Shown: in pieces, positions 1,809-58,320 of the stretch
Layout: every line of letters begins with the position of its first letter
Position numbering within the stretch: the first letter of the stretch is position 1
Sequence record: NC_104190.1
Direction: 5' to 3' (one strand)
From: Escherichia phage IME178
DNA length: 64,000 nucleotides
Program-made: the position numbers and the translations under genes
Notes under the pieces: generated by a model
The model's database searches: none
Told to the model about the DNA's origin: nothing
The model's input: only the letters and a program-made list of their open reading frames with translations

Positions 1809-1837
1809 TTGCAGGATGCCCAAAATCTTGATATAAT
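1809..1837 (+). promoter_or_regulatory. sigma70-type early promoter (TTGCAG, 17-bp spacer, TATAAT) with conserved downstream ATTGAATTGAGAGA
   Basis: Member of a repeated promoter family in this window; sits about 500 bp upstream of the likely start of the 2338..5127 gene. Confidence 0.4.
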
Positions 1838-2337
1838 ATTTATATTGAATTGAGAGACATTAGTAAAAATTGATTTTGCTAATTTTTCTTGTTTACAATC
1901 CGCGATACGGAACAGTTAGGCTGCCCCATTAAGGGTTGTTTTAACTGTTACATGTTAGTTTTTAAACAAATAGTTAATAGAATACTTAGCGATCTGCGCC
2001 CCATAGGAACCCTGGTAAGGCCTCGAAGCAACCTAGTATGAGGTGGTTGTGAAGTGAGATGGGAGGAGTGAAAAACTACCGAGACGTGATTCTGTAAGTT
2101 ATATTGCATCTAGTATGAGCTAGTATATGAAGCATTAGGTGAGCAAATCTGGCTTAGCGGCCATCCTCAAGGATTTGTGCGATATAGCAAAGCAGCAGCG
2201 CAGCGTGAAAGTGGAAGTTGCCACCCCACTTCAGTATTTGCGATTAATTTGTTGAGAAATTGACAGTAACAGTTGTTCTATTCTTTCTGAATAGTCCTAA
2301 AGAAAATTTATTTCATTTCCAACACAGGAGTATTGTT

Positions 2338-5127
2338 GTGTTCTCAATCCTACAAGGTCATGCAGGATTTCATCGCGATTTAGCCACAGGCAATTGGCGA
2401 GAAGTTAAAGCAGAAGATTATCTTTTTGCTAAAAGATTTTCCTCAAAGCATCCTGAAGGTAAACCAGCTTCAATGCCCTTCAAGTTTGATGTAATTGATG
2501 AAGTTGATCCTCAAACCCTAGTAGAAATGCTTCCTCTTATGAGACGTTTAACGTCTGACCCTCATATCGTTGCGGTACGAGGTAGATGTCTTGCACCTAA
2601 AAATAATGTGCGACGTAAGAAGGGCAACTTTAATGTATCTAACCCAAGTCATATAATTGCAATGGACGTGGATGGTATTGTGGATACAGGTGGTTGTAAC
2701 AAGTTTGATCTTGTTGGCATGGCTCGACATATTATTAGAATGTTAAATAGTATTAGTGAGGATATGTTTCCTCTTGATGCAGGGTTTATCGCTCATGCAT
2801 CGTCTTCGGCTGGGCTAAAACCAGGTATCCGAATGCACTTAATACTAGAATCTAATGTTAAAGTAACTCAGGGTCAAATCAAATTCTTATTTACATCTAT
2901 CAATGAAAGTAGTAGACAAAAGTATGGCTTTGATATTGCCGACTTAGCTTATTACTCTTCCGTACAGCTCCATTATTTTGCAGATCCGTTATTTACCGAT
3001 GGTATAGTAGATCCGTTTAAAGCGGAGGGTGCTTCACGTCTGGTATTTGTTAAAGGTTCTAAAGTAAATTTACCAAATAATCTGGTTGACTATGAAACAA
3101 CTAGAGGTGAGTTTAAGGAGGAGTTTTACTCTTTACTCGATCAAATTAAAGGTAAAAAAGCTGCCTCTGATAAAGTAGAGGAAACTATCAGCGAACTAGA
3201 AGAAGCTGAGGATGGGGTGTACTTGCGTATTATCCCCAAACTATACCATAGAGCATTAGAGGATGGTGTTGATTTTGCATGGCTAGAAAAAGAAATCCGT
3301 CCAGCCTTATCAGAATATATCGCAACTAAAGATAACAGTCGTAATATTCAAGATTACTTTAATAACGGTCGTAAACAGGCTCTGAAAGCATTTGTTAATA
3401 ATTCTAAACGCGATATACCTGATGTTTTAAAAGGTATTCCACTTAAAAAGCTAGAAACTAACTCCCTAGAAACTGATAACTTCTTGAAATTAAATACTGT
3501 GCCACCAGAAGGTTATATGACTTTTGTAAAAGCAAGTCTAGGTACAGGTAAAACCACGGCGGTTGTGCGTTGGTTAGATTCAGGAGTTATTAAAGGTAAT
3601 TTCTTAGCAATTACCAATACTAGAGCGCTGGTGTCTTCAAATGCTAAGAAATTCAGTGCAGGACAATATGATAAGTCTGTAGATATGCTTAATTTTAAGC
3701 GTGGTGCTATTGACCGTATGTCCACAACTATTCACTCTTTGCATAAGTTCAAGAGTTTTATTGGTCAAATTGATGCAATCTTTATCGATGAATGTGATGC
3801 TGTAATGAATGACCTGTTATTCGCCCCGGTTGTTAAACAACGTCGTGAGTGTATTCAGGTTCTTCGGGATATTCTTGCAACTGCAAAAATCATTATATTA
3901 TCAGATGGTGATATTAGTGCAGAAACAATTGAAGCATATGGTTCCTTGATTGAGTTTGATAAACCGGTTGCATTTTATAATCACCACCGTAAGATGTTGT
4001 CAAAAGCTCATGCTTATGAGTTCCCTGATGAATCCAGTATTTGGGTTGCACTTCAGACTTCTCTAGAGATGGGTGAGAAATCTATTCTGGTATCTGACTG
4101 TGGCCCTGATGAGCTGAATGAGAAGGGCATGGCATTACGTCGTAATACGGGTGCGTTAGTTAAGGAAATCCACTCAAACTCTACGTCTGATGTAGATATT
4201 CGACGTATTCTGGATTACACAACTAATGAGCTAATTGACCAACAAATTGATTGCTTATTATGTAGTCCATCCGTAACTAGTGGTGTTGACTTCAACTATT
4301 TTGATAACGTATTCGTTATTACTAGAACCAGCAACCAAGCGCCAAACATGCGTTTCCAAGCAATCAGGCGCGACCGTGGTGCTCAGAACATCTATTATTT
4401 TATTGATAAATCTACGAGTGGATTCTCCGCAGGTTCTGAACAATATAACATTGATGAAGGTTGGCTGGAGTTAGCACAGCAATTATACGCACGTCGCAGG
4501 GAGCTGGAATCTAGGAACTATACTAGTACTTTACGTTATTACTTGCTTGATCAGGGTGCAACTATTGATATTTTCAGTGAAAGCTGGGGAACTATCGAAG
4601 GTGCAGGCAAAGAGTATACAGAAGAGCGAATCAAAGCCATTTTGTATTCAACTCCTGATTATTGCGCTCCACGTCATGCGGATGCGTATGAAGCTAAACT
4701 ACTTCTTGTTCGCTACTATCATCTTGAGTCTATTAAAGATGTAACAGTTGAGCATGTTGAACAATATATCAAGGATAAACCGAATGATCGAGCTGCATTC
4801 TTCCATAAAATGCACGAGATGTTCTGGGAAGATATTAAGAAGTGTTCAAACGTCACTATCAAACCATTCATAGAAGCTCTGAAAGGTAAGAAGAAAGATT
4901 TCTTCCTTAAAACAGGTCAGAGTGCTAACCCAAAATATGCGAGAATGTATCTTGGTATGATGGGTATTGGTAAGGATATGAACACTGAAAATATTGTAGA
5001 CTGGTACAGAACCTATTGTAAAATCGAGTGTATGCCAATCCCATATAAGTTTATGACTGATGAGGAGAAACATATGCATGATGAAGCAATGGCAGAGCTA
5101 GGTGCTAGAAATGACAGTGAAGAATAA
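2338..5127 (+). CDS. putative primase-helicase: AEP-like primase domain fused to P-loop NTPase
   Basis: Long ORF (track 2260..5127); likely start GTG 2338 after RBS AGGAG. N-terminal IIAMDVDGI and GIRMHLIL resemble AEP primase motifs I/II; Walker A GTGKT and Walker B IFIDECD follow. Confidence 0.65.
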   Translation: MFSILQGHAGFHRDLATGNWREVKAEDYLFAKRFSSKHPEGKPASMPFKFDVIDEVDPQTLVEMLPLMRRLTSDPHIVAVRGRCLAPKNNVRRKKGNFNVSNPSHIIAMDVDGIVDTGGCNKFDLVGMARHIIRMLNSISEDMFPLDAGFIAHASSSAGLKPGIRMHLILESNVKVTQGQIKFLFTSINESSRQKYGFDIADLAYYSSVQLHYFADPLFTDGIVDPFKAEGASRLVFVKGSKVNLPNNLVDYETTRGEFKEEFYSLLDQIKGKKAASDKVEETISELEEAEDGVYLRIIPKLYHRALEDGVDFAWLEKEIRPALSEYIATKDNSRNIQDYFNNGRKQALKAFVNNSKRDIPDVLKGIPLKKLETNSLETDNFLKLNTVPPEGYMTFVKASLGTGKTTAVVRWLDSGVIKGNFLAITNTRALVSSNAKKFSAGQYDKSVDMLNFKRGAIDRMSTTIHSLHKFKSFIGQIDAIFIDECDAVMNDLLFAPVVKQRRECIQVLRDILATAKIIILSDGDISAETIEAYGSLIEFDKPVAFYNHHRKMLSKAHAYEFPDESSIWVALQTSLEMGEKSILVSDCGPDELNEKGMALRRNTGALVKEIHSNSTSDVDIRRILDYTTNELIDQQIDCLLCSPSVTSGVDFNYFDNVFVITRTSNQAPNMRFQAIRRDRGAQNIYYFIDKSTSGFSAGSEQYNIDEGWLELAQQLYARRRELESRNYTSTLRYYLLDQGATIDIFSESWGTIEGAGKEYTEERIKAILYSTPDYCAPRHADAYEAKLLLVRYYHLESIKDVTVEHVEQYIKDKPNDRAAFFHKMHEMFWEDIKKCSNVTIKPFIEALKGKKKDFFLKTGQSANPKYARMYLGMMGIGKDMNTENIVDWYRTYCKIECMPIPYKFMTDEEKHMHDEAMAELGARNDSEE

Positions 5128-5344
5128 AAAATGGGAAACAAGGAAGTTTCCAGTAAAAGAACGTAAAGTTCCTGTTTACGACACTTCGGAAAAGCTATGT
5201 AGGGTGGTACCGCATAGACTAGCTGGCATCCCTAACATATCCGAGTGGTTACTTAAACAACGGAAAACTAACGTGTCTCTTCGCGTAGGCTTTGAGTTAG
5301 ATAAAGTCTATGCTGAACTTGCTTCTTTGCTCAAGGAATCGTAA
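5111..5344 (+). CDS. hypothetical protein
   Basis: ORF track 5102..5344; ATG at 5111 overlaps the end of the upstream gene. Confidence 0.35.
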   Translation: MTVKNKKWETRKFPVKERKVPVYDTSEKLCRVVPHRLAGIPNISEWLLKQRKTNVSLRVGFELDKVYAELASLLKES

Positions 5345-5352
5345 AAATTTAT

Positions 5353-5381
5353 TTGCATAGTGCAAAAAATTTCTGTATAAT
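5353..5381 (+). promoter_or_regulatory. sigma70-type early promoter (TTGCAT-17-TATAAT) with conserved ATAAATTTGAGAGAGGAG leader
   Basis: Leader/RBS runs directly into the ATG at 5413. Confidence 0.5.
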
Positions 5382-5412
5382 AGATTCATAAATTTGAGAG
5401 AGGAGTTTAAAT

Positions 5413-6117
5413 ATGGCTGGTTCTCGTAGAAAGAAACATATCCATGAAATCCCGGATGAAGTCTTTAAAAAGGTTATAGAGCATCTGGAGAACGGTGGTA
5501 CTAAGAAAGCAGCATGTGAAATGCTCGGCGTATCGTCCAATCCAACTATGGAAAGGATGATTGAAGAATGGCAAGACCGCCAGATTCAGGTTGCCGAAAT
5601 GAAGAAAAAGAAACGTGGCACTCTCATTGAAGGCATTGAGTTAGCCAACGTTATTGAGCAGTATTTATCTGGTGATTCTTTTGAAGAAATTGCCGATCGT
5701 AATTATCGCTCTGTAGCAATGGTTAAATCTGTTCTGGAACGATATGGTGCTCTACTTCGTTTGAACGATATTGTAGATCCATTGAATCCTCCAATTATTC
5801 CTGATGATGCTGTAGCAGAAGAATTTGCAGTTGGTGAGCTTGTTTGGGTTCCTGGATACCAGTGTATCGGTGAAATCAAAAAAGCAATGGATAATCCTGT
5901 TGGTTGTTACCGTGTATGGCTTCTATCAGAAGGCAAACAACAGAACGTTCATTATATGAATTACGAGTTGGCCTCTGTTAAACATCTGGAAAAGTTAGGG
6001 GTTGACGTAAAATCTCTAGGATATAAATGGACTAGTGAAGAAATTATTACGTTGATTAACGAAGCTGTTAAGGCTGCCCTGAAACTTGATAAAGAAAAAG
6101 GAAAACGCCGTGAGTAA
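5413..6117 (+). CDS. helix-turn-helix DNA-binding protein (putative regulator)
   Basis: 234 aa; two HTH-like stretches (GGTKKAACEMLGVSSNPTMERMIEEW and SFEEIADRNYRSVAMVKSVLERYG). Confidence 0.55.
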   Translation: MAGSRRKKHIHEIPDEVFKKVIEHLENGGTKKAACEMLGVSSNPTMERMIEEWQDRQIQVAEMKKKKRGTLIEGIELANVIEQYLSGDSFEEIADRNYRSVAMVKSVLERYGALLRLNDIVDPLNPPIIPDDAVAEEFAVGELVWVPGYQCIGEIKKAMDNPVGCYRVWLLSEGKQQNVHYMNYELASVKHLEKLGVDVKSLGYKWTSEEIITLINEAVKAALKLDKEKGKRRE

Positions 6118-6373
6118 GCTAACAGATTTGCTTAAAGATGGAGATGTAAAATATCTCCAGCGGGATAGCTGGGGTAATTGGGATGCTCGTACTTATTACT
6201 CTACTATTATAAAAGTAGATGTTGATAATAATGATATTATCGAGTTTACCTGGTGGCCCAATGAAGATGGGTATACCAAGTTCGATATAAAAGACGCAAC
6301 ATGGAAGACCACCTCCCTAACCCTAGAAGAAGCTCTGGCGGATGATTGGGAGATCGTTGAGCTAGATGTATAG
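6110..6373 (+). CDS. hypothetical protein
   Basis: ORF track 6086..6373; probable GTG start at 6110 after AAGGA, overlapping the upstream stop. Confidence 0.45.
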   Translation: MSKLTDLLKDGDVKYLQRDSWGNWDARTYYSTIIKVDVDNNDIIEFTWWPNEDGYTKFDIKDATWKTTSLTLEEALADDWEIVELDV

Positions 6374-6393
6374 CAGTTATCGAAAAATTTCAG

Positions 6394-6422
6394 TTGCTTA
6401 ATCCTATAATTCTTGATATAAT
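6394..6422 (+). promoter_or_regulatory. sigma70-type early promoter (TTGCTT-17-TATAAT)
   Basis: Same family; upstream of the gene at 6480. Confidence 0.45.
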
Positions 6423-6479
6423 ATTCTCATAGTTTGAAAGAACTATTCTGTTTAATTCTTAATTAAGGAAATATAAAAT

Positions 6480-6890
6480 ATGACTACTCCAACTCAGTGG
6501 ACTGATGAACTGTTCGAAAAAATGTCTTCCGAATACGTTGCTCGTATGGAACAATTCCCAGAGGATGAACGTCCTGGTGTTAGCATGGAAATTGTTAGCG
6601 AAATTGCCCAGGAAAATGGTGTAACTCCGAACGGTTTTCGTATGAAGCTAACTAAAGCAGGTTTGTATATCAAGAAAGCTGCTGGCTCTGCTTCTAAATC
6701 TAGTGCATCTACTGGAGAAAAAGCTTCTGGTGGTTCTCGCACTTCTAAAGCTCAAGCTCATGCCGACCTTCGTTCAGCATTCTCTGATGCTGGCCTAGCA
6801 CCAGATTTTCTGGATGATGCAATTATCGACAAACTGACCGGTAAAGCGGCTGCTCATCTGGCAGAAGCAATCCGAGCTATCACTAAGTAA
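6480..6890 (+). CDS. A2-like paralogue (small, apparently highly expressed protein)
   Basis: 136 aa with E. coli-optimal codons; shares W(T/N)(D/E)E, EIA(Q/K), KLT(K/S)A and a C-terminal KL(T/E) helix with the 135-aa A2-like ORF at 56311..56718. Confidence 0.6.
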   Translation: MTTPTQWTDELFEKMSSEYVARMEQFPEDERPGVSMEIVSEIAQENGVTPNGFRMKLTKAGLYIKKAAGSASKSSASTGEKASGGSRTSKAQAHADLRSAFSDAGLAPDFLDDAIIDKLTGKAAAHLAEAIRAITK

Positions 6891-6926
6891 TTTTTAGATA
6901 AATCCACCAACAAAAGGAACACAGTT

Positions 6927-7223
6927 ATGACCAAAGCTGAAATTATCGCACAATGTGAAAAATTTGGTGAGTTTTATCTTCATTACGAGAAACTTCGTCA
7001 GAAAGGAACCACATACCTTCAGGGTACGATGGAATTTGATCCAGCCCAAGATAAATATCTAGCTGAGCGTATTAAACGTGAACGTATTCGTAAAGCGAAA
7101 GATGATGAGATCCTTGTCTTCTCTCGTACTAATGATAGTTTCCGTTTTATTCCTGTCGAGAAAGTCCGTCGTGTGACTAGCCTCCAATCAGAGTTAGATC
7201 GTGCTTCTCCAGTAGGCCGATAA
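6927..7223 (+). CDS. hypothetical protein
   Basis: 98-aa ORF followed by a terminator hairpin. Confidence 0.5.
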   Translation: MTKAEIIAQCEKFGEFYLHYEKLRQKGTTYLQGTMEFDPAQDKYLAERIKRERIRKAKDDEILVFSRTNDSFRFIPVEKVRRVTSLQSELDRASPVGR

Positions 7224-7233
7224 GAAACCAATT

Positions 7234-7256
7234 AGCCCCTATATGGGGCTTTTTGT
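7234..7256 (+). terminator. rho-independent terminator (AGCCCCT-ATAT-GGGGCT + T-run)
   Basis: Perfect stem followed by TTTTTG. Confidence 0.6.
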
Positions 7257-7273
7257 GTATTTGGAATATGTAA

Positions 7274-7582
7274 ATGAGCGAACAGGTAAATCAAAACTAT
7301 GAAGGACACGTTGATGACCAGTCCATCATACTTTGGGAGAAGGAGGGAGAACAAGTAAGATTAACAGTATCTGAATTTCGTGGGAATCTATACATGGGTA
7401 TTCGTTACTGGCTTCTTGATATTAATGATGAATGGTTTCCAACGAAATCTGGCTTCTCTTTTCCTTACACCCTAGAAACAACATCACAGCTTTTCTATGC
7501 GTTTACACAGATTCTTAGCGAATCTGAGGTTTTACATGAAGTACAGAAACGAGCTGAAGAACTCAAAGCCAAGAATGCCTAG
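7274..7582 (+). CDS. hypothetical protein
   Basis: 102-aa ORF; stop codon lies inside the terminator stem. Confidence 0.5.
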   Translation: MSEQVNQNYEGHVDDQSIILWEKEGEQVRLTVSEFRGNLYMGIRYWLLDINDEWFPTKSGFSFPYTLETTSQLFYAFTQILSESEVLHEVQKRAEELKAKNA

Positions 7583-7596
7583 TTCTTGGCTTTTTC
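7568..7596 (+). terminator. rho-independent terminator (GCCAAGAA...TTCTTGGC + TTTTT)
   Basis: Inverted repeat followed by T-run. Confidence 0.6.
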
Positions 7597-7609
7597 TTTA
7601 TAAATGTAT

Positions 7610-7638
7610 TTGCTTTCAACTCAGTTTTATTATATAAT
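7610..7638 (+). promoter_or_regulatory. sigma70-type early promoter (TTGCTT-17-TATAAT) with conserved ATAAATTGATGAGAGA leader
   Basis: Upstream of the ligase N-terminal ORF. Confidence 0.5.
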
Positions 7639-7669
7639 ATTTATATAAATTGATGAGAGATATAAATAA

Positions 7670-8640
7670 ATGACTAATGTAAAAGACTTTATTAAACGCT
7701 GTCAAGAAGCATATTATCAAGGTATGTCTTTAATCTCTGACGAAGAATATGATCGTCTGATTAAAAGATTTCCATTAGAAGAAGAGATCGGGCCTAAGGG
7801 TGATATTCCACATCTGTATCGTATGTATTCTTTACAGAAAGTTTATTATAATCGTGGAGATAAACCTCCGTTCAACCCGTTAGGTCAGGTAGAAACTGAT
7901 AAGTTAGATGGTTGTGCGATTTCTCTGTTATATATTAATGGAGAATTTGTTCAAGCACTAACTCGTGGTAATGGTATTCTAGGGAATGATGTCACAAGCA
8001 ACGTAAGATTGCTGAATATCCCTAAAAAGATTTCCCAAAAAGTACCTACTCAAATCACTGGTGAAGTTCTAATTACAAAAGAAGTAGAAAATAAACGTAA
8101 CTTTGCCTCTGGTGCTATTAACCTCAAAGATAGCGATGATTTCGTACAACGTATTGGGGAAGGTGGTTTAATCTTCGTTGCATATGGTATCCAGTGTTCT
8201 GCTGAATCTGTAGGTATTACAGAAGCGTACTTAAAAGATATGCTCTGGCTGGAGAATGAGACTTCTTAACAGTTGTTAATGTGCGTTCCTTCTTTAAGTG
8301 GATTCCGACGGATGGTAAAGTTGTTCGTATTAATGACAACAACAAATTCTTCCGTGAAGGCTGGACTAATAAATTTCCTCGTGGAGCATTCGCTATTAAA
8401 GAAGATGAAGAAGGCGAGATTACAACTCTTACTAAAGTTGAATGGCAGGTAGGGGCTTCTGGTAAAGTAACTCCAGTTGGTTATTTCGAATCGGTAATTA
8501 TTGATGATGCTACAATTGTTAAGGCGACTCTTAATAACGTTGATTATATTAACTCTCTTGATCTAGAGATCGGTTGCCAGATTCGAGTAATTCGTGCTGG
8601 TGGTGTAATCCCGTGCATAGTAGAGCGAGTATACGATTAA
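7670..8640 (+). CDS. NAD-dependent DNA ligase, N-terminal subunit (adenylation + OB domains); frame break near 8260-8269
   Basis: Two track ORFs (7670..8269, 199 aa, KLDG KxDG motif; 8281..8640, 119 aa) in different frames separated by 11 bp; together about 322 codons. Confidence 0.6.
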
Positions 8641-8692
8641 TATATGTAACCCTTTGCTACCCATCTACCATATAGGAATTATAAAGTGGTTA

Positions 8693-8721
8693 TTGACATT
8701 TTCGCCGCTTAGGTATATACT
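8693..8721 (+). promoter_or_regulatory. near-consensus sigma70 promoter (TTGACA-17-TATACT) inside the ligase spacer
   Basis: Followed by a 7-codon mini-ORF (MARVSKVS). Confidence 0.4.
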
Positions 8722-8785
8722 ATTATCATTCAGTTGAGGGATAGAAAGTTATGGCGAGGGTAAGCAAAGTTAGTTAAAATTGTAG

Positions 8786-8814
8786 TTGCTAAATGCTTAA
8801 ATACTTGCTATAAT
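8786..8814 (+). promoter_or_regulatory. sigma70-type early promoter (TTGCTA-17-TATAAT) with conserved leader
   Basis: Same family; leader AAATTGATAAGGAAG precedes ATG 8845. Confidence 0.5.
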
Positions 8815-8844
8815 ATTTATATAAATTGATAAGGAAGAAATTTG

Positions 8845-9615
8845 ATGAAAATCGAAATTCCAACACAATGTCCCTCTTGTGGTTCTAAGCTAGATCTTGT
8901 CAATGGACAATTATTCTGTCGTAATAAGTCCAACTGTCCAGCGCAATCAAGTAAGTTAATTGAGAACTTCTGTACAAAAATGAAGTTAAAGGGCTTTGGT
9001 CCAAAAACTATTGAGAAGCTGGAGCTGACGAAGATTTCAGAACTATTTTACCTAACCGAACAAGATTTGGTTAGAGCCGTGGGTAGCAAGGTTGCCGCTA
9101 AGTTAATTAGCGAATTAAATACTAAAGTTCGCGGAGACATTGACTTTGGTTCAGTTCTCGGTTCTTTAGGAATCCCTCTAATAGGAGAGGTTGCAGCAAA
9201 GAAATTATCCCAAAATTGCAACAGCTTCCATGATGTGAAGGCTGACGGCAAGGCTGGAGAAAACTATAAAGCCTGGCTAAATTCCCCACAAGGCAAGGAT
9301 GTTATCGAACTACCGTGGAAATTCTCAACTGGTGCTAAAGCTAAAACCGTCGTTACTGATGATTTAGTTGCCCAGCCAAATGGAATCGCGGTATGTATTA
9401 CCGGGTCTTTGCAAGACTTTGCAAATAGAACGGATGCAACAAACTATTTAGAAGGTCTAGGATATACGGTTAAGAAATCCGTTACCAAAGACGTCAAATA
9501 CCTGATCTGTGAGGATGAATCAAAACGTTCTTCCTCATCTTATAAGAAAGCCGAAACGAATGGGATAGAAATCCTGTCGATTAAAGAACTATTGGAGAAA
9601 AATAATAATGTCTAA
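8845..9615 (+). CDS. NAD-dependent DNA ligase, C-terminal subunit (Zn-finger, HhH, BRCT-like)
   Basis: CPSCGS...CRNKSNCPAQ zinc-finger motif; ORF track 8842..9615, ATG at 8845. Confidence 0.65.
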   Translation: MKIEIPTQCPSCGSKLDLVNGQLFCRNKSNCPAQSSKLIENFCTKMKLKGFGPKTIEKLELTKISELFYLTEQDLVRAVGSKVAAKLISELNTKVRGDIDFGSVLGSLGIPLIGEVAAKKLSQNCNSFHDVKADGKAGENYKAWLNSPQGKDVIELPWKFSTGAKAKTVVTDDLVAQPNGIAVCITGSLQDFANRTDATNYLEGLGYTVKKSVTKDVKYLICEDESKRSSSSYKKAETNGIEILSIKELLEKNNNV

Positions 9616-10375: not shown

Positions 10376-10392
10376 TCTGGTAAATTAAACCT

Positions 10393-10425: not shown

Positions 10426-10457
10426 CATTTAGAAGGCACGAAAGCGTGCAAAGGAGA

Positions 10458-11930: not shown

Positions 11931-12818
11931 GTAGAATAACAGAACTACTTGATCTGAAAGGCATTGAATATAAAGACACAGGTGGGGACATCCTCATCTG
12001 TTGTCTCAATCCAGATCATGACGATAAACACCCAAGTTTGCGTATTGATCCTGAAACAGGTATTATGCACTGCTTGAGTTGTGGCTTCGGTAAAGGTATA
12101 CCGAGCATTTACCATTATTTTAATGAGACTCAGTACCGACAGTCCCCAAGGCTATCGCAAGTACGTAAAAAGATTTCAGAGATTAGGAATGGGTCAACGA
12201 ATCTTGCAATTCCTGAATCTGCTTACCTTTTCGAAGGTGATTTCCGAGGTATAAGTTCTAAGACCTTGAAGAAATATTTTGCTTTCCAACACCAAGCAGA
12301 CTGGGAAGGCAGAATTGTATTCCCAATCACAGATGCTGTTGGACGCAATATCCTATTTTTGGGTCGTTCTATAAACAGTTCTGCCCCTCCTAAATACTTA
12401 GTAAAACCAAAACAAGTTTCACCACCAATTTTTCCTGTACGATATAATACCCCAATTCTTATTCTAGTTGAAGGTATCTTTGATATGCTGAATCTAGAGG
12501 ATAATGGTATAGACTATGCTTCTTGTTGCTTCGGTACACATCAGTTTACTTCAGATAACATTGCAGATAAGTTTAGTCCGTATATTATTGCTGGTGTTAA
12601 AGTTGTTGTTATCTTACTAGATAATGATGCTTCTGGTAATAAAGCTGCACAAGCACTGGCTAAGCTAATTCGTACAAAAAACGCGTTTAACACCTGTAGT
12701 TGCTAACTTTCTTCTGCCTGAAGGTAAAGACCCAGGTGACTTAAGTAAAGAAGAAATTGATATGTTAGCAAAACGTATTGAAATTTTAGTTGCTGAATCG
12801 CTTAAAGATTTGGTATAA
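11927..12818 (+). CDS. DnaG-like DNA primase (zinc-binding + TOPRIM); frame break at A6 run near 12676-12681
   Basis: CCLNPDHDDKHPSLRIDPETGIMHCLSCGFGKG zinc motif; track ORF ends 12706 but the +1 frame continues with LPEGKDPGDL (TOPRIM-like) to stop at 12818. Confidence 0.65.
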
Positions 12819-12867
12819 TAGTCCTAAATAACTGAGGAGCTACTATGGAATATGTATATATATTTAT

Positions 12868-13176
12868 GTGGATGTTCCAGTGTATGATAGTATAACACAC
12901 AAAGAGGTTAAACTAGAGCGGTTTACAACACTGGAGTCCCTTAATAAACGAAAGAATTTCCATTTATTTGGTGATCCTAAATTACCTGCATCTTATATTT
13001 ACTTTAAAGTAAAAGATACAGGTCAAGAGGTATACCTAACATATGATTGGGCTGTTGTAGAAAATACTGAGCAATCTATGAAAGCGCTAGATGCTTTTCT
13101 GCGTATAGATGAAGAATTTCGGGTACTAGAAAAGCAGCGCAATGAAATGCGTAAATTACTTCACACCTATAAATAG
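12868..13176 (+). CDS. hypothetical protein
   Basis: 102-aa ORF with alternative start; an RBS-preceded ATG at 12845 is in another frame, so the start is uncertain. Confidence 0.4.
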   Translation: MDVPVYDSITHKEVKLERFTTLESLNKRKNFHLFGDPKLPASYIYFKVKDTGQEVYLTYDWAVVENTEQSMKALDAFLRIDEEFRVLEKQRNEMRKLLHTYK

Positions 13177-13179
13177 TAT

Positions 13180-13208
13180 TTGCTATTATCCCAATATTTT
13201 GATATAAT
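13180..13208 (+). promoter_or_regulatory. sigma70-type early promoter (TTGCTA-17-TATAAT)
   Basis: Upstream of the polymerase gene; leader carries GAGGAG. Confidence 0.5.
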
Positions 13209-13269
13209 ATATTGGTAAGTTAGAGAAGAAACACTGAAGTTATACTTACTTACCAAGAGGAGATTAAAT

Positions 13270-16327: not shown

Positions 16328-17676
16328 AGGTTGTTATATCTAATAAAGCCTATTTCAAGCCCGATGATGAACTTTGGGATTATTGTAGTAAGCAAACCAC
16401 TTATCACATAGAGACAATGACTAGTAAATACCCTATTATGTATAAGAATAGTGGTGTTGTTGCCAAAGAGATTAAGTGGATTCCTATTACACGTCTGGAC
16501 TTACTAGATGCTAAAGGAGTAAAATACGAATTAGTAGATAAACGTACATTAGCTCCGGTAGATATACCAAAACCTAAGTTCAAGCTGCGTGAAGAAGACC
16601 AGCTCCCAATATATGAAGAGTGCGATGATACCTGTATTATTAATGGTAAGCCTGGGTTTGGTAAAACTATCCTAGCCCTTGCACTTGCGTATAAATTTGG
16701 CCAGAAAACTTTGGTAATCTGTACGAATACATCCATTCGTGAAATGTGGGCGGCAGAAGTTCGTAAATGGTTTGGGTTTGAACCGGGCATTATAGGTTCT
16801 GGGAAATACAATATTGATCCACCAATTGTGGTCAGTAATATTCAAACAGTGAATAAACATGCGAATAATCTTTCTAAAGTATTCGGTACTGTTATAGTTG
16901 ATGAAGTTCACCATTGTGTGGCTACAACTTTCACTAACTTCCTAGAAATATCATGTGCTCGCTATAAAATTGGACTATCCGGCACATTAAAACGGAAAGA
17001 TGGTCTACAAGTTATGTTCAAAGATTTCTTTGGATATAAGATCTTTAGCCCCCCGGTTAATAATACTGTTGCACCTACAATCCATAGGTACTCCGTACCT
17101 GTTGAGTTATCAGGAAACCAAAACGTACCATGGGCATTACGTGCTAACGATGTGTATAATCATCCTAAATATCGAGAGACTATTATAAACCTGGCACATT
17201 TATACGTGAATATGGGGCATAAAGTACTCATTGTAAGTGATAGAACAGAGTTAATCCAAACAGTATTAGAAGCTCTTGCACAGCGTGGTGTTACAACATA
17301 TGAAATTATAGGGGCAACCCACTTAGATGACCGATTAAAAATTCAGGAAGATATAGCAAAAGGTGGACCTTGTGTACTTGCAGCAGCTCAAAGCATCTTC
17401 TCTGAAGGTATTTCTCTTAATGAGTTGTCTTGTTTAATAATGGGAAGTCTCATTAATAATGAGTCTCTCATTGAACAGCTTGCAGGTCGTGTTCAACGTA
17501 TTGTCGATGGTAAACTCGACCCTATTGTTGTAGATCTAATTATGAAAGGTGGCACTGGACTAAGACAGGCTTCTGGACGTATGGCAGTATATCGTAACAA
17601 CGGGTGGAAAACTATTACCATGACTCCTGAGAAAGCAGTTCAATTAGCTAAAATTGCATTTGGCAACAGCTCATAA
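16324..17676 (+). CDS. SF2 ATP-dependent DNA helicase (D10-like)
   Basis: 450 aa; Walker A GKPGFGKT, DEVH box (VIVDEVHHC); ATGA start/stop overlap with the upstream ORF. Confidence 0.7.
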   Translation: MKVVISNKAYFKPDDELWDYCSKQTTYHIETMTSKYPIMYKNSGVVAKEIKWIPITRLDLLDAKGVKYELVDKRTLAPVDIPKPKFKLREEDQLPIYEECDDTCIINGKPGFGKTILALALAYKFGQKTLVICTNTSIREMWAAEVRKWFGFEPGIIGSGKYNIDPPIVVSNIQTVNKHANNLSKVFGTVIVDEVHHCVATTFTNFLEISCARYKIGLSGTLKRKDGLQVMFKDFFGYKIFSPPVNNTVAPTIHRYSVPVELSGNQNVPWALRANDVYNHPKYRETIINLAHLYVNMGHKVLIVSDRTELIQTVLEALAQRGVTTYEIIGATHLDDRLKIQEDIAKGGPCVLAAAQSIFSEGISLNELSCLIMGSLINNESLIEQLAGRVQRIVDGKLDPIVVDLIMKGGTGLRQASGRMAVYRNNGWKTITMTPEKAVQLAKIAFGNSS

Positions 17677-17760
17677 ATGATGTATAATATACACATAAAT
17701 TTGAGAGAGAAAGTTTCGGATTGATAAGAAAGTCCGAAGCAGAAAAATAAAAAATTTTAG

Positions 17761-17790
17761 TTGCTAAATTCTCTCGAAATCTAGTATAAT
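17761..17790 (+). promoter_or_regulatory. sigma70-type early promoter (TTGCTA-18-TATAAT) with conserved ATAAATTCGAGGAG leader
   Basis: Second of two tandem promoter-like elements; the first has TATAAT at 17683-17688. Confidence 0.45.
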
Positions 17791-17897
17791 ATATACATAA
17801 ATTCGAGGAGAAAATAAAAATTAAATTCTTCGATTATGAAAAGCTATACTTACTAGCTAGAGGAAATTCCGACCTAATTATTAAGCTATTCAAAAGA

Positions 17898-18182
17898 ATG
17901 CTTACAGAGCCTGATGCTCACCAATTATTGGTCGGTTCCTCATTCATTTTGAATGAATCAACAATAGTTGATAATCCAAATAAATTGTCTAATAGACAAC
18001 TGGCAGAATATCTAGGAATTTTAAGTCTACGAAATTATGCCGAATACAAGTTTACAAACGATCCTAGTTTGGACATACAATATGTTCCAGTATGGATACC
18101 ACGTTTAGTAATCGACACTAACCCACTAATCGCAATTAACAAATCGAAATTAATCTTTAAAGAGGAAATAAAATATGGCTAA
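17898..18182 (+). CDS. hypothetical protein
   Basis: 94-aa ORF between the promoters and the SSB-like gene; weak RBS. Confidence 0.35.
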   Translation: MLTEPDAHQLLVGSSFILNESTIVDNPNKLSNRQLAEYLGILSLRNYAEYKFTNDPSLDIQYVPVWIPRLVIDTNPLIAINKSKLIFKEEIKYG

Positions 18183-34284: not shown

Positions 34285-34393
34285 AGTTAATTTCTCCTCT
34301 TTAATAACAATATTATAATAGTATTAGAAAATTTTATCAAGAAATTTTTATTTTTCCATAAAGAAAAGGAGGACTCAAAGTCCTCCTCCAGTT

Positions 34394-45168: not shown

Positions 45169-45171
45169 TTA

Positions 45172-46871: not shown

Positions 46872-47308
46872 TATAAGAACCTTGCGAATCCTGATTTTGT
46901 TTCAGTCTTGACTTGTGTCTTTTCTTGAGGATTCTGTAATTTGTCTTTCTGCTTTTGAACCCACACTTTTTGCTTATTAGCAGAAAATAAAGGAGGTTCT
47001 TTTGTGTAAACCTTATGTAATAATTGGTGATGGTGTACACAAAGGGTAACAGTGTCTTCTACTAGCTCATGCCTATATCGATCATAGAATGCCGTCCTAT
47101 TTGAAAGGACTATTTCTTCGTCAGTGAAATCCAATTGGAGTTCTTTAGCAAATTTTTTAACTAGTAGAGACACCGTATGGTAATGATGAAGCTCTAATTC
47201 TTCAGCACAACCGCAGATAGCACATTGAGAGTCTTTTTTATATTGACTTTTTATTCCGTCTCTCATAAGGGATATAGCATCGCGTTTATATTTTATATTG
47301 CTTGCCAT
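46871..47308 (-). CDS. HNH endonuclease-like zinc-binding protein
   Basis: CAICGC...HHYH...CVHHHQLLH motifs; ATG at 47308 follows RBS GAGGAG (track ORF 46871..47395). Confidence 0.6.
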   Translation of the reverse strand: MASNIKYKRDAISLMRDGIKSQYKKDSQCAICGCAEELELHHYHTVSLLVKKFAKELQLDFTDEEIVLSNRTAFYDRYRHELVEDTVTLCVHHHQLLHKVYTKEPPLFSANKQKVWVQKQKDKLQNPQEKTQVKTETKSGFARFL

Positions 47309-47422
47309 AGTGTTCTCCTCAACTGTATGAATATAGTATACATAATCGTATCGAATTTGTAAAGGGGATTTTAAAATGCAGGAATGGGATACCAACTGAG
47401 TAGTATCCCTTCCTATACTTAT

Positions 47423-49221: not shown

Positions 49222-49231
49222 ATTTCCTCCT

Positions 49232-50989: not shown

Positions 50990-51014
50990 ATAATCTCCTA
51001 TTATAAAAATGTAT

Positions 51015-51043
51015 TTGCTTTCATCCCTCTATTTTGCTATAAT
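51015..51043 (+). promoter_or_regulatory. sigma70-type early promoter (TTGCTT-17-TATAAT) with conserved ATAAATTAGAAATGGAGAGA leader, driving llp
   Basis: Same promoter family as the replication genes, in the divergent pb5/llp intergenic region. Confidence 0.5.
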
Positions 51044-51074
51044 AGATTCATAAATTAGAAATGGAGAGATAAAT

Positions 51075-51341
51075 ATGAAAAAGTTTGTGATTGCACTAGT
51101 TGCCGCAGTTATGTTATCTGGTTGTGCACCTGCTCCCAAACCATTTTGTACTGGATTTGTAAAATCTTTTGGGGGTGCGGGAGAAGAACATTATGGCCTC
51201 AAGGTTCAAAAAGTTCGTATTAAGGGAGATCGCTTCCCAGTAGTACAACTCCGTACTAAATTTGGGTGGTGGGATCTCAGTCAGTTTGACCTTAAATATG
51301 GTGATTGTAAATTTAAACTAGAGCAATCTAACTACCTGTAA
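51075..51341 (+). CDS. llp: Llp-like lytic-conversion lipoprotein
   Basis: 88 aa with signal peptide and lipobox LSGC; divergent from the receptor-binding gene. Confidence 0.65.
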   Translation: MKKFVIALVAAVMLSGCAPAPKPFCTGFVKSFGGAGEEHYGLKVQKVRIKGDRFPVVQLRTKFGWWDLSQFDLKYGDCKFKLEQSNYL

Positions 51342-52538: not shown

Positions 52539-52695
52539 CGCTAATTACCAATCCTCCAAATTTCATAAGATTACACATGGAGGTGTGTCCAGTGGCCCCC
52601 CAGATGAGAATGAGTCTCATTACCGCCCGGTACTTAGCAGGCTAATAGTCACGGCATGTTACCATTACACACCGTGACTATTTCAACTTTAATTA

Positions 52696-53430: not shown

Positions 53431-53516
53431 TTGTTACGTTCTCCATTTAAGGGATTAGATTAATTCAATCTAGCCCACTAATTATATTTTATTAGTGGGC
53501 TATGTTCAATTAACTA

Positions 53517-53915: not shown

Positions 53916-53953
53916 GTTTATAAAACTCCAATTAGTTTAATAATGGATTTAAT

Positions 53954-54211
53954 TTATTTGATAATAATCTGCATCTGGTACGGCGTTAATTCACCGTTTA
54001 CGGGTAAATTATTATCGCTTAGCCACTCATAAAAAGCGCTATCGTCATCAAAAGGAACAACATCATTATCACGGGAATCGACGGAAATAATGCCATCAGT
54101 ATTAGTTTTGGCGGCTAGGATAGGCCCGAAGCTGTAAACTTTATCGGATTCCATTTCATCCGGTGAAATGAATACTTTTTCGTCCAATGTTTTGGGTAAT
54201 GTAACTTTCAT
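53954..54211 (-). CDS. hypothetical pre-early protein (acidic)
   Basis: 85-aa ORF. Confidence 0.45.
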   Translation of the reverse strand: MKVTLPKTLDEKVFISPDEMESDKVYSFGPILAAKTNTDGIISVDSRDNDVVPFDDDSAFYEWLSDNNLPVNGELTPYQMQIIIK

Positions 54212-54267
54212 TTTTTGTGACTCCTGTAATAGCGGCTGTATTTCAAGCCGCTAGGGAAATAATTTAA

Positions 54268-55932
54268 TTACGCAAAGAATTTACCATTCTTAAAGTCAAT
54301 CAAAGTGCGTTGACCGTTTGCATAGGTAATTAAATGCGTTTGCGTCCAGCTTGACGCGCCAACGTTGTAACCCATATCCAGACTACCCGCTACGCCAGCG
54401 GTATATACGCCACCGTAAATGCTGGCGGTATGGGTGTGCCCCGTGTTCAATTTACCCAATTTCTTAAATTGTTTCGGGTTGCCACGGCTGCCGTTAATGC
54501 CGTTGTGACCGTGTACGCCGCATTCAATACCTGCAATCTTGAAAGATTGGTCAGTGGTTAGGAAAATGGCGTTAAACTCACAACCTGCAACCTTGCGCAA
54601 CGCATAATCTAGCACGTTGAAGGTATCGTCATGCTCACCGATTGCCGCATAGATTGCAGCATTCAGGCGGTGATACAGTTCCGCGTTCGCGGGATCGTCT
54701 TTGATGTTAGCATTACGATCATCAAGCCAACGGGATAACGCTAGATCGTGATTTGATTCAACAATGATTGTTTGACTAAAATCACGTTCCATTGACTCCA
54801 GCACGCGACCGGTATCGATAAGGTCATCCAGAACTTTATCACGTCCGGCGGCATACTGTTTCGCTAGGAATACACCCGAAGCGCGGTTATGATGATTGCG
54901 CGATGTAAAATCGTGAACGTCATGGATAAACTGATATTTTGGTTTAAGAATATCAAGCAAGCTATTTTCGCCAGCCCAAGATGCGGCGGCGCACTCTTCA
55001 TCTAATTTTTCGGCGTGAATATCACCATACTGCAAGCCTAAAACATGCCCCGATGTCTCATAGCATCCGGCAGGAGTAGCGCACACATTCAGATCATAAA
55101 ATACCCCGCTTTCGTCCATCGTTTCGAGCTGGCGTACAAAAAATTCCCCGTCCTCGTCGAACTCAACAATCAGCGCACCGAAGTTATGCAGTGCTTCCGC
55201 TTTTTGTCCTGCTTTCTGCTGAATGTAGTTTTTGAGCGTTGCCGTTCCGGTTGAGTACATACGGCGCACTACTTCACCTTTTAAAGCTGGTACGCTTTCA
55301 GCGGTAATTTTAGCGTGACCAATTGCCAGACCTTCAATATTTAAAGCCGTTGCAGTTTCTGCGAATCCAGAAAGCGGATAATCTGCGGTAGGCAAAACAT
55401 TAATTTCAGCCATGAAAGCAAAACGGCGGTTATTTAAAAACACGTTTTTGCTGCAAATATATTTATCAAACGCAGAATCATATTTGATTCCGTCTGCACC
55501 TTCTCCATTTTGGAAGCCGTTTTTATTATAAATATACTTAGAAACAAGCAAATCGGCACCGATATATTCAGCGAATTTTTCCAGACTTGCTAAAAAGTTT
55601 TTATGCGGGAAAGTATTATTCTGAATCGACGTAATAATAAAACGTTTACCCTGTTTTACTTCCCATTGCTCAACCGTACTAGAAACAATCCCAGCCGCTT
55701 CGGGGCGCTCGTCGTTTTTAATGGCTTTTGCTACTTTTGCCGCTTTCGGTTTAGCTGGTTTGTTTGCTTCCAGCCAATCACAAATGGCGGTGGAATGTTT
55801 CGTTGTATCGTAGACTGCTTTTGATATATCGTCGCAGACCTCCAGTTTAGTAGCGCGCAGACGTTTACCATAGAAATTAAAGTCAGCGGCCATTTTCAGA
55901 ATAACGGTTTGTTTTTCTGCGGAAATAATCAT
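54268..55932 (-). CDS. A1: A1-like pre-early protein (metallophosphoesterase-type nuclease)
   Basis: 554 aa (T5 A1 is 556 aa); metallophosphatase motifs GDIHAE, GVHGHNG, GHTHT. Confidence 0.7.
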   Translation of the reverse strand: MIISAEKQTVILKMAADFNFYGKRLRATKLEVCDDISKAVYDTTKHSTAICDWLEANKPAKPKAAKVAKAIKNDERPEAAGIVSSTVEQWEVKQGKRFIITSIQNNTFPHKNFLASLEKFAEYIGADLLVSKYIYNKNGFQNGEGADGIKYDSAFDKYICSKNVFLNNRRFAFMAEINVLPTADYPLSGFAETATALNIEGLAIGHAKITAESVPALKGEVVRRMYSTGTATLKNYIQQKAGQKAEALHNFGALIVEFDEDGEFFVRQLETMDESGVFYDLNVCATPAGCYETSGHVLGLQYGDIHAEKLDEECAAASWAGENSLLDILKPKYQFIHDVHDFTSRNHHNRASGVFLAKQYAAGRDKVLDDLIDTGRVLESMERDFSQTIIVESNHDLALSRWLDDRNANIKDDPANAELYHRLNAAIYAAIGEHDDTFNVLDYALRKVAGCEFNAIFLTTDQSFKIAGIECGVHGHNGINGSRGNPKQFKKLGKLNTGHTHTASIYGGVYTAGVAGSLDMGYNVGASSWTQTHLITYANGQRTLIDFKNGKFFA

Positions 55933-56022
55933 AGTAATAAAACTCCATTAAAGGGATTAGATTAATAATGGCAATATTGCCAAATATAACGCCTCAAATA
56001 ATAGGCGTTATAATTTGCAACA

Positions 56023-56220
56023 TTAATTTAAAGGCACTAGGCTAGAACTAACACCACAAGCAACGGCAGCGATAAAACAAAGCAGACCTAAACGTTTTGC
56101 TAACTTAGATTTACGTTTAAAATAATACGAATCTAAATCATTTTGAAAATAAGCGAACAATAATGAGGCCGCCATAATAAACAAGCCTAGAATCAAAGAT
56201 TCAGTAGGGAAGAAAACCAT
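56023..56220 (-). CDS. small two-helix membrane protein
   Basis: 65 aa, two hydrophobic segments. Confidence 0.45.
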   Translation of the reverse strand: MVFFPTESLILGLFIMAASLLFAYFQNDLDSYYFKRKSKLAKRLGLLCFIAAVACGVSSSLVPLN

Positions 56221-56310
56221 TTTTAAAACTCCTGATTTAAGGGAAGAAAATAACTATCGCTAAACAGTTATATTATTGCCCCCTCACTAGAAGGGGGCAA
56301 GGTATAACTA

Positions 56311-56718
56311 TTATTCGCCTGCGGCTTGTTTTACTTCATCAGCAACGCCTAACAATTGCGCTACTGCGTCCAGCGTTTCAAGTTTTGCACTTTCAAGGCT
56401 TGCCAGATCATCGGCGTCTTTGATAATACCGGAATCGATAGCGTGTTTTGCAATTACTCGCACATAGTGAGCTTTACGCACAGAGCTACCGCCGCCAACT
56501 TTACGCGGCTTATCGCTTTTTTGATAGGCTTTTGCACTGGTCAATTTTGAGCGAACGGATACAGGGGAAGCCGCGCCTACTGCTTTTGCAATCTCTTTCA
56601 GGCCGTCGCTATTTGCGAAATCTAAACCGTTTTCATTGATTAACTGCTGGTACATAGAAACAGCTTTCTGAGTGTTTTCTTCGTTCCATGCGAATTTTGC
56701 GGTTTTAGCGTTAGTCAT
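56311..56718 (-). CDS. A2: A2-like pre-early DNA-binding protein
   Basis: 135 aa, adjacent to A1 as in T5; paralogous to the ORF at 6480..6890. Confidence 0.55.
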   Translation of the reverse strand: MTNAKTAKFAWNEENTQKAVSMYQQLINENGLDFANSDGLKEIAKAVGAASPVSVRSKLTSAKAYQKSDKPRKVGGGSSVRKAHYVRVIAKHAIDSGIIKDADDLASLESAKLETLDAVAQLLGVADEVKQAAGE

Positions 56719-56816
56719 GATAAAAACTCCTATTAGTTTAATTTAAGGGATTAGATTAACTTAATGTTAATCGTTATATCCCCCTGAAATAAGGGGGATA
56801 TAAAGTTAACACTAAA

Positions 56817-57068
56817 TTACAACACAGCTTCCCATTTTTCGTTGCGTTGAACAACCTTTACAACATCGCCGGATTTAACGCGAACGCTAAAAACGGGCTT
56901 GCCGTTGTTACTGCGTTCATTTTCAGCATATACCGCGTCGATTGTATCGAATGGCATAAGCGCCGCACCTTTAATACGTTCGGCCTTTCCGGTTAATTCA
57001 TCCGTTTTAGTAACGAAAGGAATAAAGACGGATTGACCAATTTTAGGCGCGGTAATAACGTTTTGCAT
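56817..57068 (-). CDS. hypothetical pre-early protein
   Basis: 83-aa ORF followed by stem-loop and leader motif. Confidence 0.45.
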   Translation of the reverse strand: MQNVITAPKIGQSVFIPFVTKTDELTGKAERIKGAALMPFDTIDAVYAENERSNNGKPVFSVRVKSGDVVKVVQRNEKWEAVL

Positions 57069-57829
57069 AATATAGACTCCAGTTATTTGATGGATTGTTC
57101 CGCATTACCTGCTAGAAGGTAGCAGGTAATAAGTAACAATCCGCTCGCCAGTTTAATCAATTTAAAGAACTCCACGTAGGCCGCTATATCCCGTTAGGGG
57201 GCGGGGCGCATTATGGTAAGCACCGACCGTCAAATTTTATCAAGTTATCGCTCTTATCGAACTGGGTACATCTTAAAACCTATCGGCTAGGTTGTCAAAT
57301 AATTTTTTGCAGTTTTTTATGATTTTCTTTCAAGTCAATCATAATGTTTCGCCAGATCATTTCCAGACCTTGCTGGCGACCTTTCTTGTACTGCGTGAAT
57401 CTATATTTTACTGATCTTTGAGCTACTGTCAACAAATTTTTTTGTTTTGCTATCTAGTGCCTTAATAGGCTTGCCAGTGATCAAAAGCGTTTGTTTCATA
57501 TCGTCGATTCCTTATAATGAATAAGTTTACCGCCGATAGGCTTTAAGATATACCCAATTTTTTAAAGAGCGCGGCGGTAAACTTTCCGCCGTGTAGTTCG
57601 TCATTGCCGCCCTACGAGATAAATAATAACAAACAACGAAAAAAGGCGCAACCTTATTTTTGTAAAGAAATGTAAAGACACGATCCACCGAACGGCGTGC
57701 GGCGACGGCCTAAAATTAAAAGAAACGGGCGCGCGAATACCACAAAACAGAGCAAATAGGCAAGTAATTTTTTCATTTATATTTGCTTTGCCCTACTTGA
57801 CAAAATCTAAAAAGCTCGTGGCAGCGATA

Positions 57830-58320
57830 AACGGCTTATCCCCTTATGATGGGATGGCTAAAAACTTTATTGCGTTCTGGAGCGTTTTAGACGCATTCTA
57901 GCCCTGTTGATAACTTATCCCCAAAAGCAAAAATGAAATTTTCCTAGTTATCCACTTGACTTTTATTTTCCAGTGGATAACTACTTATTTTATGAAATAA
58001 ATTAATTGACTTTTGTTTGCTAGTATGTATCGGAAAGATAGCAGACTAATAATTGCTAGAATGATAATCATGCTGGTGGATTGTAACAGCGTAAACTATT
58101 AGCAGACTATTAATCACGGAAAATCTCATTAGCTAACTAACTATTTCATGTTATATAATATACATATAAATTAATGAGAAATAATAACTACAAGAAATCA
58201 TCTAGCTAAGTGAGAACCACTATCATTTAAGTTATCCACAACGTTATCTACAGCACAAAATAACTTGACACGATAGGCGGCGATATAAGGACTTTTGCAC
58301 AGACTTATCCACAGGTTATT
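57830..58320. promoter_or_regulatory. non-coding region with DnaA-box cluster and inverted repeats
   Basis: Exact TTATCCACA at 58232-58240 and 58305-58313; inverted TTATCCACT pair at 57948-57956/57972-57980; TTATCCCC half-boxes nearby. Confidence 0.55.
58131..58159 (+). promoter_or_regulatory. early-family promoter-like element (TATAAT at 58154-58159, conserved ATAAATTAATGAGAAA leader)
   Basis: Matches the conserved -10/leader motif; weak -35; about 450 bp upstream of 58608. Confidence 0.35.

Follow-up and report, generated by a model that had tools for sequence, protein, structure and literature searches.

Does the promoter-like sequence that recurs along the genome of Escherichia phage IME178 represent a true family of early promoters and, if it does, what is the role of the conserved stretch that follows each start site? 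The question concerns 64,000 nucleotides (nt) of this genome (sequence record NC_104190.1), which we call the window. The original prediction listed nine near-identical sites in it, with a shared -35 element TTGC(T/A)(T/A) and a conserved leader supplying the ribosome-binding site, and took them for strong sigma-70 early promoters of the T5 type. In our opinion it is very probable indeed that the sites serve a T5-like phage as early promoters and are read by the host sigma-70 RNA polymerase. They belong to the already described T5-type early promoters, which is ordinary for a T5-like virus and is no new biology. What is added here is a tenth member at 17660, a limit to the validity of the ribosome-binding-site claim, doubt about the site at 58131, an architecture common to several genera, and a single cassette bounded by promoters.

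Ten sites and their counterparts in T5

A pattern search of the window for TTGCWW-N{16,19}-TATAATW gave seven matches, all on the + strand (5353, 6394, 7610, 8786, 13180, 17761 and 51015), against a mean of 0.34 in shuffled sequence, where none of 100 shuffles reached seven. A modular position-weight scan (upstream block with the -35, a spacer of 16-18 base pairs (bp), and the -10 with 26 nt downstream) separates ten sites, at 43-54 bits, from the runners-up at 29, 23 and 23 and from a shuffle maximum of 16.9 (20 shuffles). These are the nine listed sites and one overlooked at 17660; outside the ten there is a weaker site of hybrid make-up, at 12790-12819. All are intergenic and on the + strand; each lies between open reading frames (ORFs) and faces a co-oriented downstream ORF, and only at 17660 does the -35 overlap the end of the preceding ORF. 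The motif family is thus real, and the motif search that had been proposed as its check, once run over the window, confirmed it and enlarged it by one.

Its description needs some correction. Mean column identity is 65% over the 91 aligned columns of the ten sites, hence "near-identical" was an overstatement and a strong common consensus is the better term. In this alignment there is no variation in the A-tract, in the TTG of the -35 or in TATAATA, and very little in the +1 region; every A column before the -35 (the AAAAATT block around -43) is invariant or at least 90% conserved, and the spacer is 17 bp at eight sites and 18 bp at two. All nine listed sites do exist, and seven carry the shared -35; 1809 (TTGCAG) and 58131 (TAGCTA) do not, and the added site 17660 has TTGGCA, the same as T5 P31A.

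The leader motif, ATAAATTKAGAGA as it was literally written, occurs at chance frequency (10 found with up to two mismatches, 9.06 expected), because the actual consensus, CATAAATTnRnGAGAG, is one base longer. Even the corrected motif ATAAATTNRNGAGR is only weakly enriched when searched alone (6 found, 2.9 expected). The leader signal is significant only if tied to the -10: TATAAT-N6-ATAAATT without mismatches has just seven occurrences in the window, all of them at members of the ten. The +1 regions of the other three (ATTGAAT, ATAGTTT and GTAAGTT) are each identical to that of the T5 orthologue.

The window has the genome type of a Tequintavirus and is T5-like, with 77-97% identity to T5. Its positions 5000-9000 matched 474 phage records in a megablast search, nearly all of them T5-like Salmonella and Escherichia phages at 80-98% identity. 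Local BLAST against T5 (NC_005859) gave colinear blocks:

Window 382-23588, T5 57.6-81.4 kb: right arm of the early region, from the origin-binding protein to dUTPase.
Window 28-49 kb: late structural genes, minus strand.
Window 52.7-63.0 kb: terminal repeat with the pre-early genes.

About 48 promoters are annotated in this T5 record; 46 were extracted, and about 30 have the same architecture. Nine of the window sites are positional orthologues of annotated T5 promoters, namely P-N25, P-N26, PligA, P-K28a, Ppol, P31A, P31B and the promoters of the origin-binding-protein gene and llp. Eight of them are 89-100% identical to T5 sequence and the llp site corresponds by position only. Applied to T5, the matrix derived from the window gave 34 hits: 32 on annotated promoters, and two on the two terminal-repeat copies of one unannotated site, the counterpart of 58131. 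The -35, the spacer, the -10, the A-tract, the +1 region and the gene positions are common to IME178 and T5. There are also differences: the IME178 P-N25 orthologue, unlike that of T5, has TTGCAT and another spacer; the upstream half of Ppol has been replaced owing to an inserted cassette; and the llp promoter, for which there is no close T5 match, belongs to a receptor-binding/llp module that has diverged.

The ten sites are as follows.

1795-1863, + strand: promoter of the origin-binding-protein gene; -35 TTGCAG at 1809, TGn and -10 TATAAT at 1832, predicted +1 near 1844 (ATTGAATTGAGAGA); score 46.9; 98% identity to the T5 promoter annotated at 58999-59073.
5339-5407, + strand: P-N25 orthologue, promoter of the D2 gene; -35 TTGCAT at 5353, -10 at 5376, +1 at the A 5388 (ATAAATTTGAGAGAGGAG), ATG at 5413; 89% identity to T5 63025-63144; the 25-nt leader provides the Shine-Dalgarno sequence (SD).
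6380-6448, + strand: P-N26 orthologue, promoter of the D3 gene; -35 TTGCTT at 6394, TGn and -10 at 6417, +1 near 6429 (ATAGTTTGAAAGAACTAT, with a 5'-terminal hairpin); 98% identity to T5 64077-64170; 51-nt leader.
7596-7664, + strand: ligA promoter; -35 TTGCTT at 7610, -10 at 7633, +1 at 7645, ATG at 7670, 25-nt leader; 97.5% identity to T5 65267-65386, where a promoter is annotated at 65284-65358; immediately 3' of a terminator hairpin (7565-7593).
8772-8840, + strand: P-K28a orthologue, ligB promoter; -35 TTGCTA at 8786, TGn and -10 at 8809, +1 at 8821, ATG at 8845, 24-nt leader; 100% identity to T5 66442-66561; in tandem with the P-K28b orthologue (TTGACA at 8693, TATACT at 8716), a canonical sigma-70 promoter of a different type.
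13166-13234, + strand: DNA polymerase promoter Ppol; -35 TTGCTA at 13180, TGn and -10 at 13203, +1 at a G near 13215; 55-nt leader with a hairpin (GUAAGU...ACUUAC) at its start; the half upstream of the -10 is not T5 sequence and was brought by the inserted cassette.
17646-17714, + strand: P31A orthologue; -35 TTGGCA at 17660, -10 at 17683, +1 at 17695 (ATAAATTTGAGAGAGAAAG); 98% identity to T5 75450-75569; in tandem, 102 bp upstream of the 17761 promoter.
17747-17816, + strand: P31B orthologue; -35 TTGCTA at 17761, 18-bp spacer, -10 at 17785, +1 at 17797 (ATAAATTCGAGGAG); 101-nt leader, up to the ATG at 17898.
51001-51069, + strand: promoter of an llp/Cor-like superinfection-exclusion lipoprotein gene; -35 TTGCTT at 51015, TGn and -10 at 51038, +1 at 51050, ATG at 51075, 25-nt leader; same position as the T5 promoter 110349-110423 upstream of lpp/llp; divergent from the gene for the receptor-binding tail protein; the product matches the PHROG Cor protein (E = 1.8e-26).
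58117-58185, + strand: uncertain member in the terminal-repeat (pre-early) region; TAGCTA at 58130-58135, 18-bp spacer, -10 TATAAT at 58154, ATAAATTAATGAGA from 58166; score 43.3.

The genes headed by the family are those of the replication and repair operons (origin-binding protein, D2, D3, ligA, ligB, pol, D11-D15) together with llp. The -35, spacer, -10, A-rich block and +1 region of T5-type early promoters are all present, as are the location and orientation before early genes and the orthology with T5, nine of the ten sites falling on annotated T5 promoters.

The same architecture is found by the matrix before orthologous genes in a Klebsiella Sugarlandvirus and a Vibrio Thalassavirus, the latter from another subfamily; among these genes are those for the origin-binding protein, D2, D3, ligB, pol and the D11 operon. 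The promoters of ligB and of pol can be aligned across IME178, T5 and the Klebsiella and Vibrio phages. In all four genomes the consensus of the first transcribed bases is ATAAATT, and ATAAATTGA at +1 persists in the Klebsiella and Vibrio family members. Our own comparison shows the sequence family and its non-chance nature, the position and orientation of the sites, their T5 orthology and their conservation across genera.

Could the sites nevertheless be chance sigma-70-like matches in an A/T-rich genome? A generic TTGACA/TATAAT scan of the window, with 65 found and 57.8 in shuffles, is uninformative and would be what such a view expects. However, the extended pattern is far above chance, the sites are intergenic and on the coding strand only, and they occupy orthologous positions across genera. 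We give chance practically no credence: it is refuted by the pattern and matrix statistics, by the cross-genus conservation and by the matrix hits on annotated T5 promoters.

Three points are taken from the T5 literature: that the E. coli sigma-70 polymerase transcribes from these promoters, that it does so early, and that the transcribed region of N25 affects escape. T5 genes of all classes are transcribed by the host sigma-70 polymerase, and early kinetics have been observed for T5 Ppol by primer extension (PMC7472727); according to Gentz and Bujard 1985, as cited in the same paper, T5 early promoters were selected by function. Niu et al. 2012 (PMC3326045) described 32 promoters in AKFV33, a T5-like phage, with TTGCTw, 17-18 bp, TATAATA, AAAAATT upstream at about -43 and TAAATT at +1. 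This consensus is identical to that of the IME178 family; the GAGAG segment and the fixed 24-25-nt leader geometry are not discussed in that paper. Given a T5-related genome, nine of ten sites on annotated T5 promoters and the same published consensus, the assignment to strong sigma-70 early promoters of the T5 type stands.

Certain points do weigh against this assignment, or against taking it too far. Promoter strength, timing and start sites in IME178 are inferred from T5, and our literature search for genome-wide transcription-start-site or RNA sequencing data on T5 gave none usable. Relative strengths cannot be read from sequence. The conservation of -6 to +8 goes beyond the needs of sigma-70 and could point to a further level of control, for instance a phage regulator, for which the promoter reading has no need. 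The leader lengths discussed below come from a heuristic ORF/SD rule, which makes the division into short and long leaders approximate. Finally, 58131 is a candidate rather than an established early promoter, and its activity is uncertain.

The conserved segment downstream of the start

The anatomy of the promoters and their likely mechanism can be described as follows. An A-rich, UP-like block at about -46 to -38 (AAAAWTT) lies upstream of the -35 TTGCTW, followed by a spacer of 17-18 bp, often TGn-ended (an extended -10), a perfect TATAAT followed by A, and an A/T-rich discriminator. Transcription would start at the A of CATAAATT and continue into a purine-rich, GAGAG-like initial transcribed sequence (+8 to +18). 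So many good contacts would make polymerase binding very fast and very stable; promoter escape would thereby become rate limiting, and the conserved transcribed segment would assist it. In about 40-60% of members the start codon follows 24-25 nt from +1, with the purine run doubling as SD, which makes a compact promoter and translation-start cassette; the remaining members have a longer leader and a gene with its own SD. T5 early promoters do have a common ATATT discriminator, and N25 starts at the A named above (PMC7472727). When +3 to +20 of N25 are replaced, the yield of productive RNA falls about 10-fold and escape becomes slower; a purine-rich transcribed sequence is favourable to escape (PMC12464699).

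The emphasis of the original prediction was different: the downstream segment would be mainly a shared translation-initiation region, giving the same strong ribosome-binding site to every early gene. Several observations agree with this. Over 59 sites in four genomes the predicted leader lengths have a sharp maximum at 24-25 nt; at about 60% of these sites, and at four of the ten in the window, the distance from +1 to the start codon is 18-34 nt. At those four (5353, 7610, 8786 and 51015, with leaders of 24-25 nt) the GAGAG/GGAG run stands at SD distance and is the SD. The G fraction of +8 to +18 is also higher in short-leader members (0.39 vs 0.28 in long-leader ones).

At the other six window sites, however, the next ORF begins about 51 to about 440 nt after +1; D3, pol and the ORF at 17898, which are the three closest to their promoters, show a separate SD. 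The claim that the shared leader supplies the ribosome-binding site holds for only four of the ten sites. All six nonetheless retain the purine-rich +8 to +18 and mostly ATAAATT at +1. Among the 59 sites the purine content of +8 to +18 is 0.87 with short leaders, 0.81 with long ones and 0.50 in the background; because it is high with long leaders too, the segment is evidently kept where it is unable to act as a ribosome-binding site. With the demonstrated transcriptional role of the N25 segment in escape, we consider it clearly unlikely that translation initiation is the main reason for the conservation. The segment is best read as primarily an initial transcribed sequence tuned for escape, which in the compact cassettes also serves as ribosome-binding site.

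A further possibility concerns the segment from about -6 to +8, i.e. the A/T-rich discriminator with the start motif. It may be kept as the target of a phage factor that lowers early transcription at the early-to-late switch. Early and late promoters of T5 differ mainly in the discriminator, ATATT being that of the early ones (Klimuk et al., PMC7472727). The T5 protein gpT5.026 is reported to make the binding of polymerase to the N25 -12/+2 strand about 8-fold weaker, and early transcripts go up without it (same reference); the segment is kept even in the Vibrio phage of the family. Yet the effect of gpT5.026 in vitro is small and was deemed indirect by its authors (PMC7472727), a sequence-specific binder of the segment is not known, and an A/T-rich discriminator with a purine-rich transcribed region is also expected under selection for strength and escape. 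We see such a target as rather unlikely.

As for the long leaders themselves, a general rule that they carry a 5' hairpin is unsupported by energy alone. Only the leaders of P31A (z = -3.9) and of the origin-binding-protein gene (over 400 nt and highly structured, z = -3.7) fold significantly better than shuffles; those of D3, pol, P31B and 58131, four of the six, do not. The long leaders match no known RNA family: no Rfam family reached its gathering threshold, and a search with ARAGORN for tRNA and tmRNA genes was negative. In the leaders 1844-1960 and 17695-17796 the conserved GAGAG segment pairs with a downstream pyrimidine run, which in the P31A leader sits within the spacer of the next promoter, P31B. 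The 5' hairpin of the pol mRNA leader (window 13213-13254; L004 27697-27735; L005 25863-25890) shows compensatory stem differences between genera, GGTAAGT/ACTTACC in the window, T5 and the Klebsiella phage and GGTAAT/ATTACC in the Vibrio phage. It is reminiscent of a stabiliser of the 5' end, or of a translational operator like the one of T4 gene 43.

The Ppol cassette and a possible role of the promoters in recombination

The window exceeds T5 by 378 bases at 12821-13198. They form a cassette with a single ORF (phrog_35630 by PHROG match) between two copies of the early promoter (12790-13209). The downstream copy is Ppol; the other is listed here:

12776-12846, + strand: hybrid promoter copy before the phrog_35630 ORF; -35 TTGCTG at 12790, 18-bp spacer, -10 at 12814; score 28.7.

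In a three-way alignment T5 Ppol equals the upstream copy of the window (12790-12820) through TATAATA and the downstream copy (from about 13198) from TTTGRTATAATA on. The hybrid joins the ancestral upstream half of Ppol at TATAATA to another transcribed region with GAGGAG and an ATG at 12845, and it serves the phrog_35630 ORF with a 20-nt leader; the annotation of slur09 starts the ORF at this ATG. In the window, two additional bases relative to slur09 in a (TA)n run at about 12850-12866 put the ORF out of frame with the ATG at 12845, such that it opens only at the GTG at 12868. This is a second likely assembly error, or a phase-variable tract.

Of 437 relatives, 49 have the cassette. Among the full-length matches in a spread sample of 60 of the 437 records there are only two precise forms of the junction, with and without the cassette, and no third arrangement. 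The junction bears the signature of recombination between two promoters of the family, by insertion or by deletion.

Are the promoters, then, also portable recombination modules, whose short homology lets genes be inserted, deleted or swapped among T5-like genomes? There is a precedent in the PeSL promoter-terminator cassettes documented in T4-like phages (PMC2839356, PMC4122927), where an early-promoter motif is likewise repeated at gene boundaries, sometimes beside a stem-loop. The single IME178 indel with its two copies and hybrid junction resembles these, T5 Ppol being the sum of a left and a right half. In a comparison of four phages, several more indels have an end no further than 40 bp from a promoter of the family. 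Promoters adjoin terminator hairpins at 7565-7593/7610 and in several overlapping T5 annotations, a composite that is absent at most window sites.

However, IME178 has only one clear promoter-to-promoter crossover, and phage family and motif differ from those of T4-like phages. The other promoter-adjacent indels have no duplicated promoter, and one of them is an ORF inserted between leader and ligA. The larger indels are HNH endonuclease genes distant from promoters. Since intergenic gaps are few and mostly occupied by promoters, proximity alone is weak evidence, and the four-phage survey, though suggestive, is confounded and gives no systematic association. Recombination would in any case be an additional role and no alternative to promoter function. 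It is possible, though in our opinion doubtful, that the promoters act as such modules. We are equally tentative about the broader idea that the family, which in Escherichia, Salmonella, Klebsiella and Vibrio Demerecviridae is kept up to the first bases of the transcript, may also be the recombination substrate for shuffling small early genes, with the Ppol cassette as an example caught in the act.

Two observations on ligA may be added. In Seafire and SP3 (L012 and L013, compared with window 7659-7670) an ORF of 58-66 codons, absent from the window and T5, fills the exact junction of the conserved ligA leader with the ligA start codon; stop and start codons overlap. In the window, a 1-bp deletion relative to T5 at 8261 (GAGAAC to GAGAC) splits the 323-codon ligA into ORFs 7670-8269 and 8281-8640; this is either a sequencing error or a pseudogene.

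The pre-early repeat, other promoter types and the place of the family

The site at 58131 is flanked by divergent pre-early units. It resembles the family in the -10 and the +1 region, but its -35 is poor, and the next sizeable + strand ORF begins about 440 nt downstream. The site is conserved in T5 (6075, + strand), Seabear, bux and oldekolle, with an invariant -35/spacer block ATTAGCYAACTAACTAT; its counterpart is absent as an annotated promoter from both T5 records that we checked, NC_005859 and AY587007. Directly downstream is one arm of an inverted repeat (58180-58339 and 62273-62432). Davison (10.1101/866236) has discussed this arm as the IRC-spacer-IRD element, which carries DnaA boxes.

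DnaA boxes TTATCCACA stand at 58232, 58305 and 62372. Beside these boxes, at the matching ends of the arms, there are palindromes resembling LexA boxes, CTGTATAAATATACAG (58324-58339) and CTGTATATTTGTACAG (62273-62288), the first of which is invariant in five phages; the Davison preprint, which does describe the DnaA boxes, makes no mention of a resemblance to SOS boxes. Just upstream of 58131 the motif TAGCAGACTAWTAAT occurs twice (58040-58115); it is kept in relatives and could be a protein-binding site. On the minus strand at 63650-63720, just beyond the terminal-repeat homology and pointing back to the repeat, there is a canonical TTGACA-18-TATAAT promoter-like site with CATAGATT at +1; megablast found no T5 match for this stretch. 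Sigma-70-like sites of another type, without the early-type +1 region, lie upstream of late genes on the minus strand at 34290-34340 and 47300-47345. One is the orthologue of T5 P-G25, TTGATA-17-TATAAT followed by AAAGAGGAGAAA, and the second is TTACAA-16-TATACT.

T5 early promoters, P-N25 foremost, have a classic place as tools and as models in work on strong sigma-70 initiation and on escape from the promoter, and the transcription units of T5 are directly transferable when the early right arm of IME178 is annotated. The conservation across genera gives strong comparative support for function and shows that the promoter design is a family-wide trait. That long-leader members retain the purine-rich segment argues that its primary role is transcriptional, which is a modest extension of what was known; another is that the whole architecture, with ATAAATTGA at +1, persists in the Klebsiella and Vibrio phages. 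If the recombination idea is true, the promoter family would be the T5-family counterpart of the T4 PeSL cassettes.

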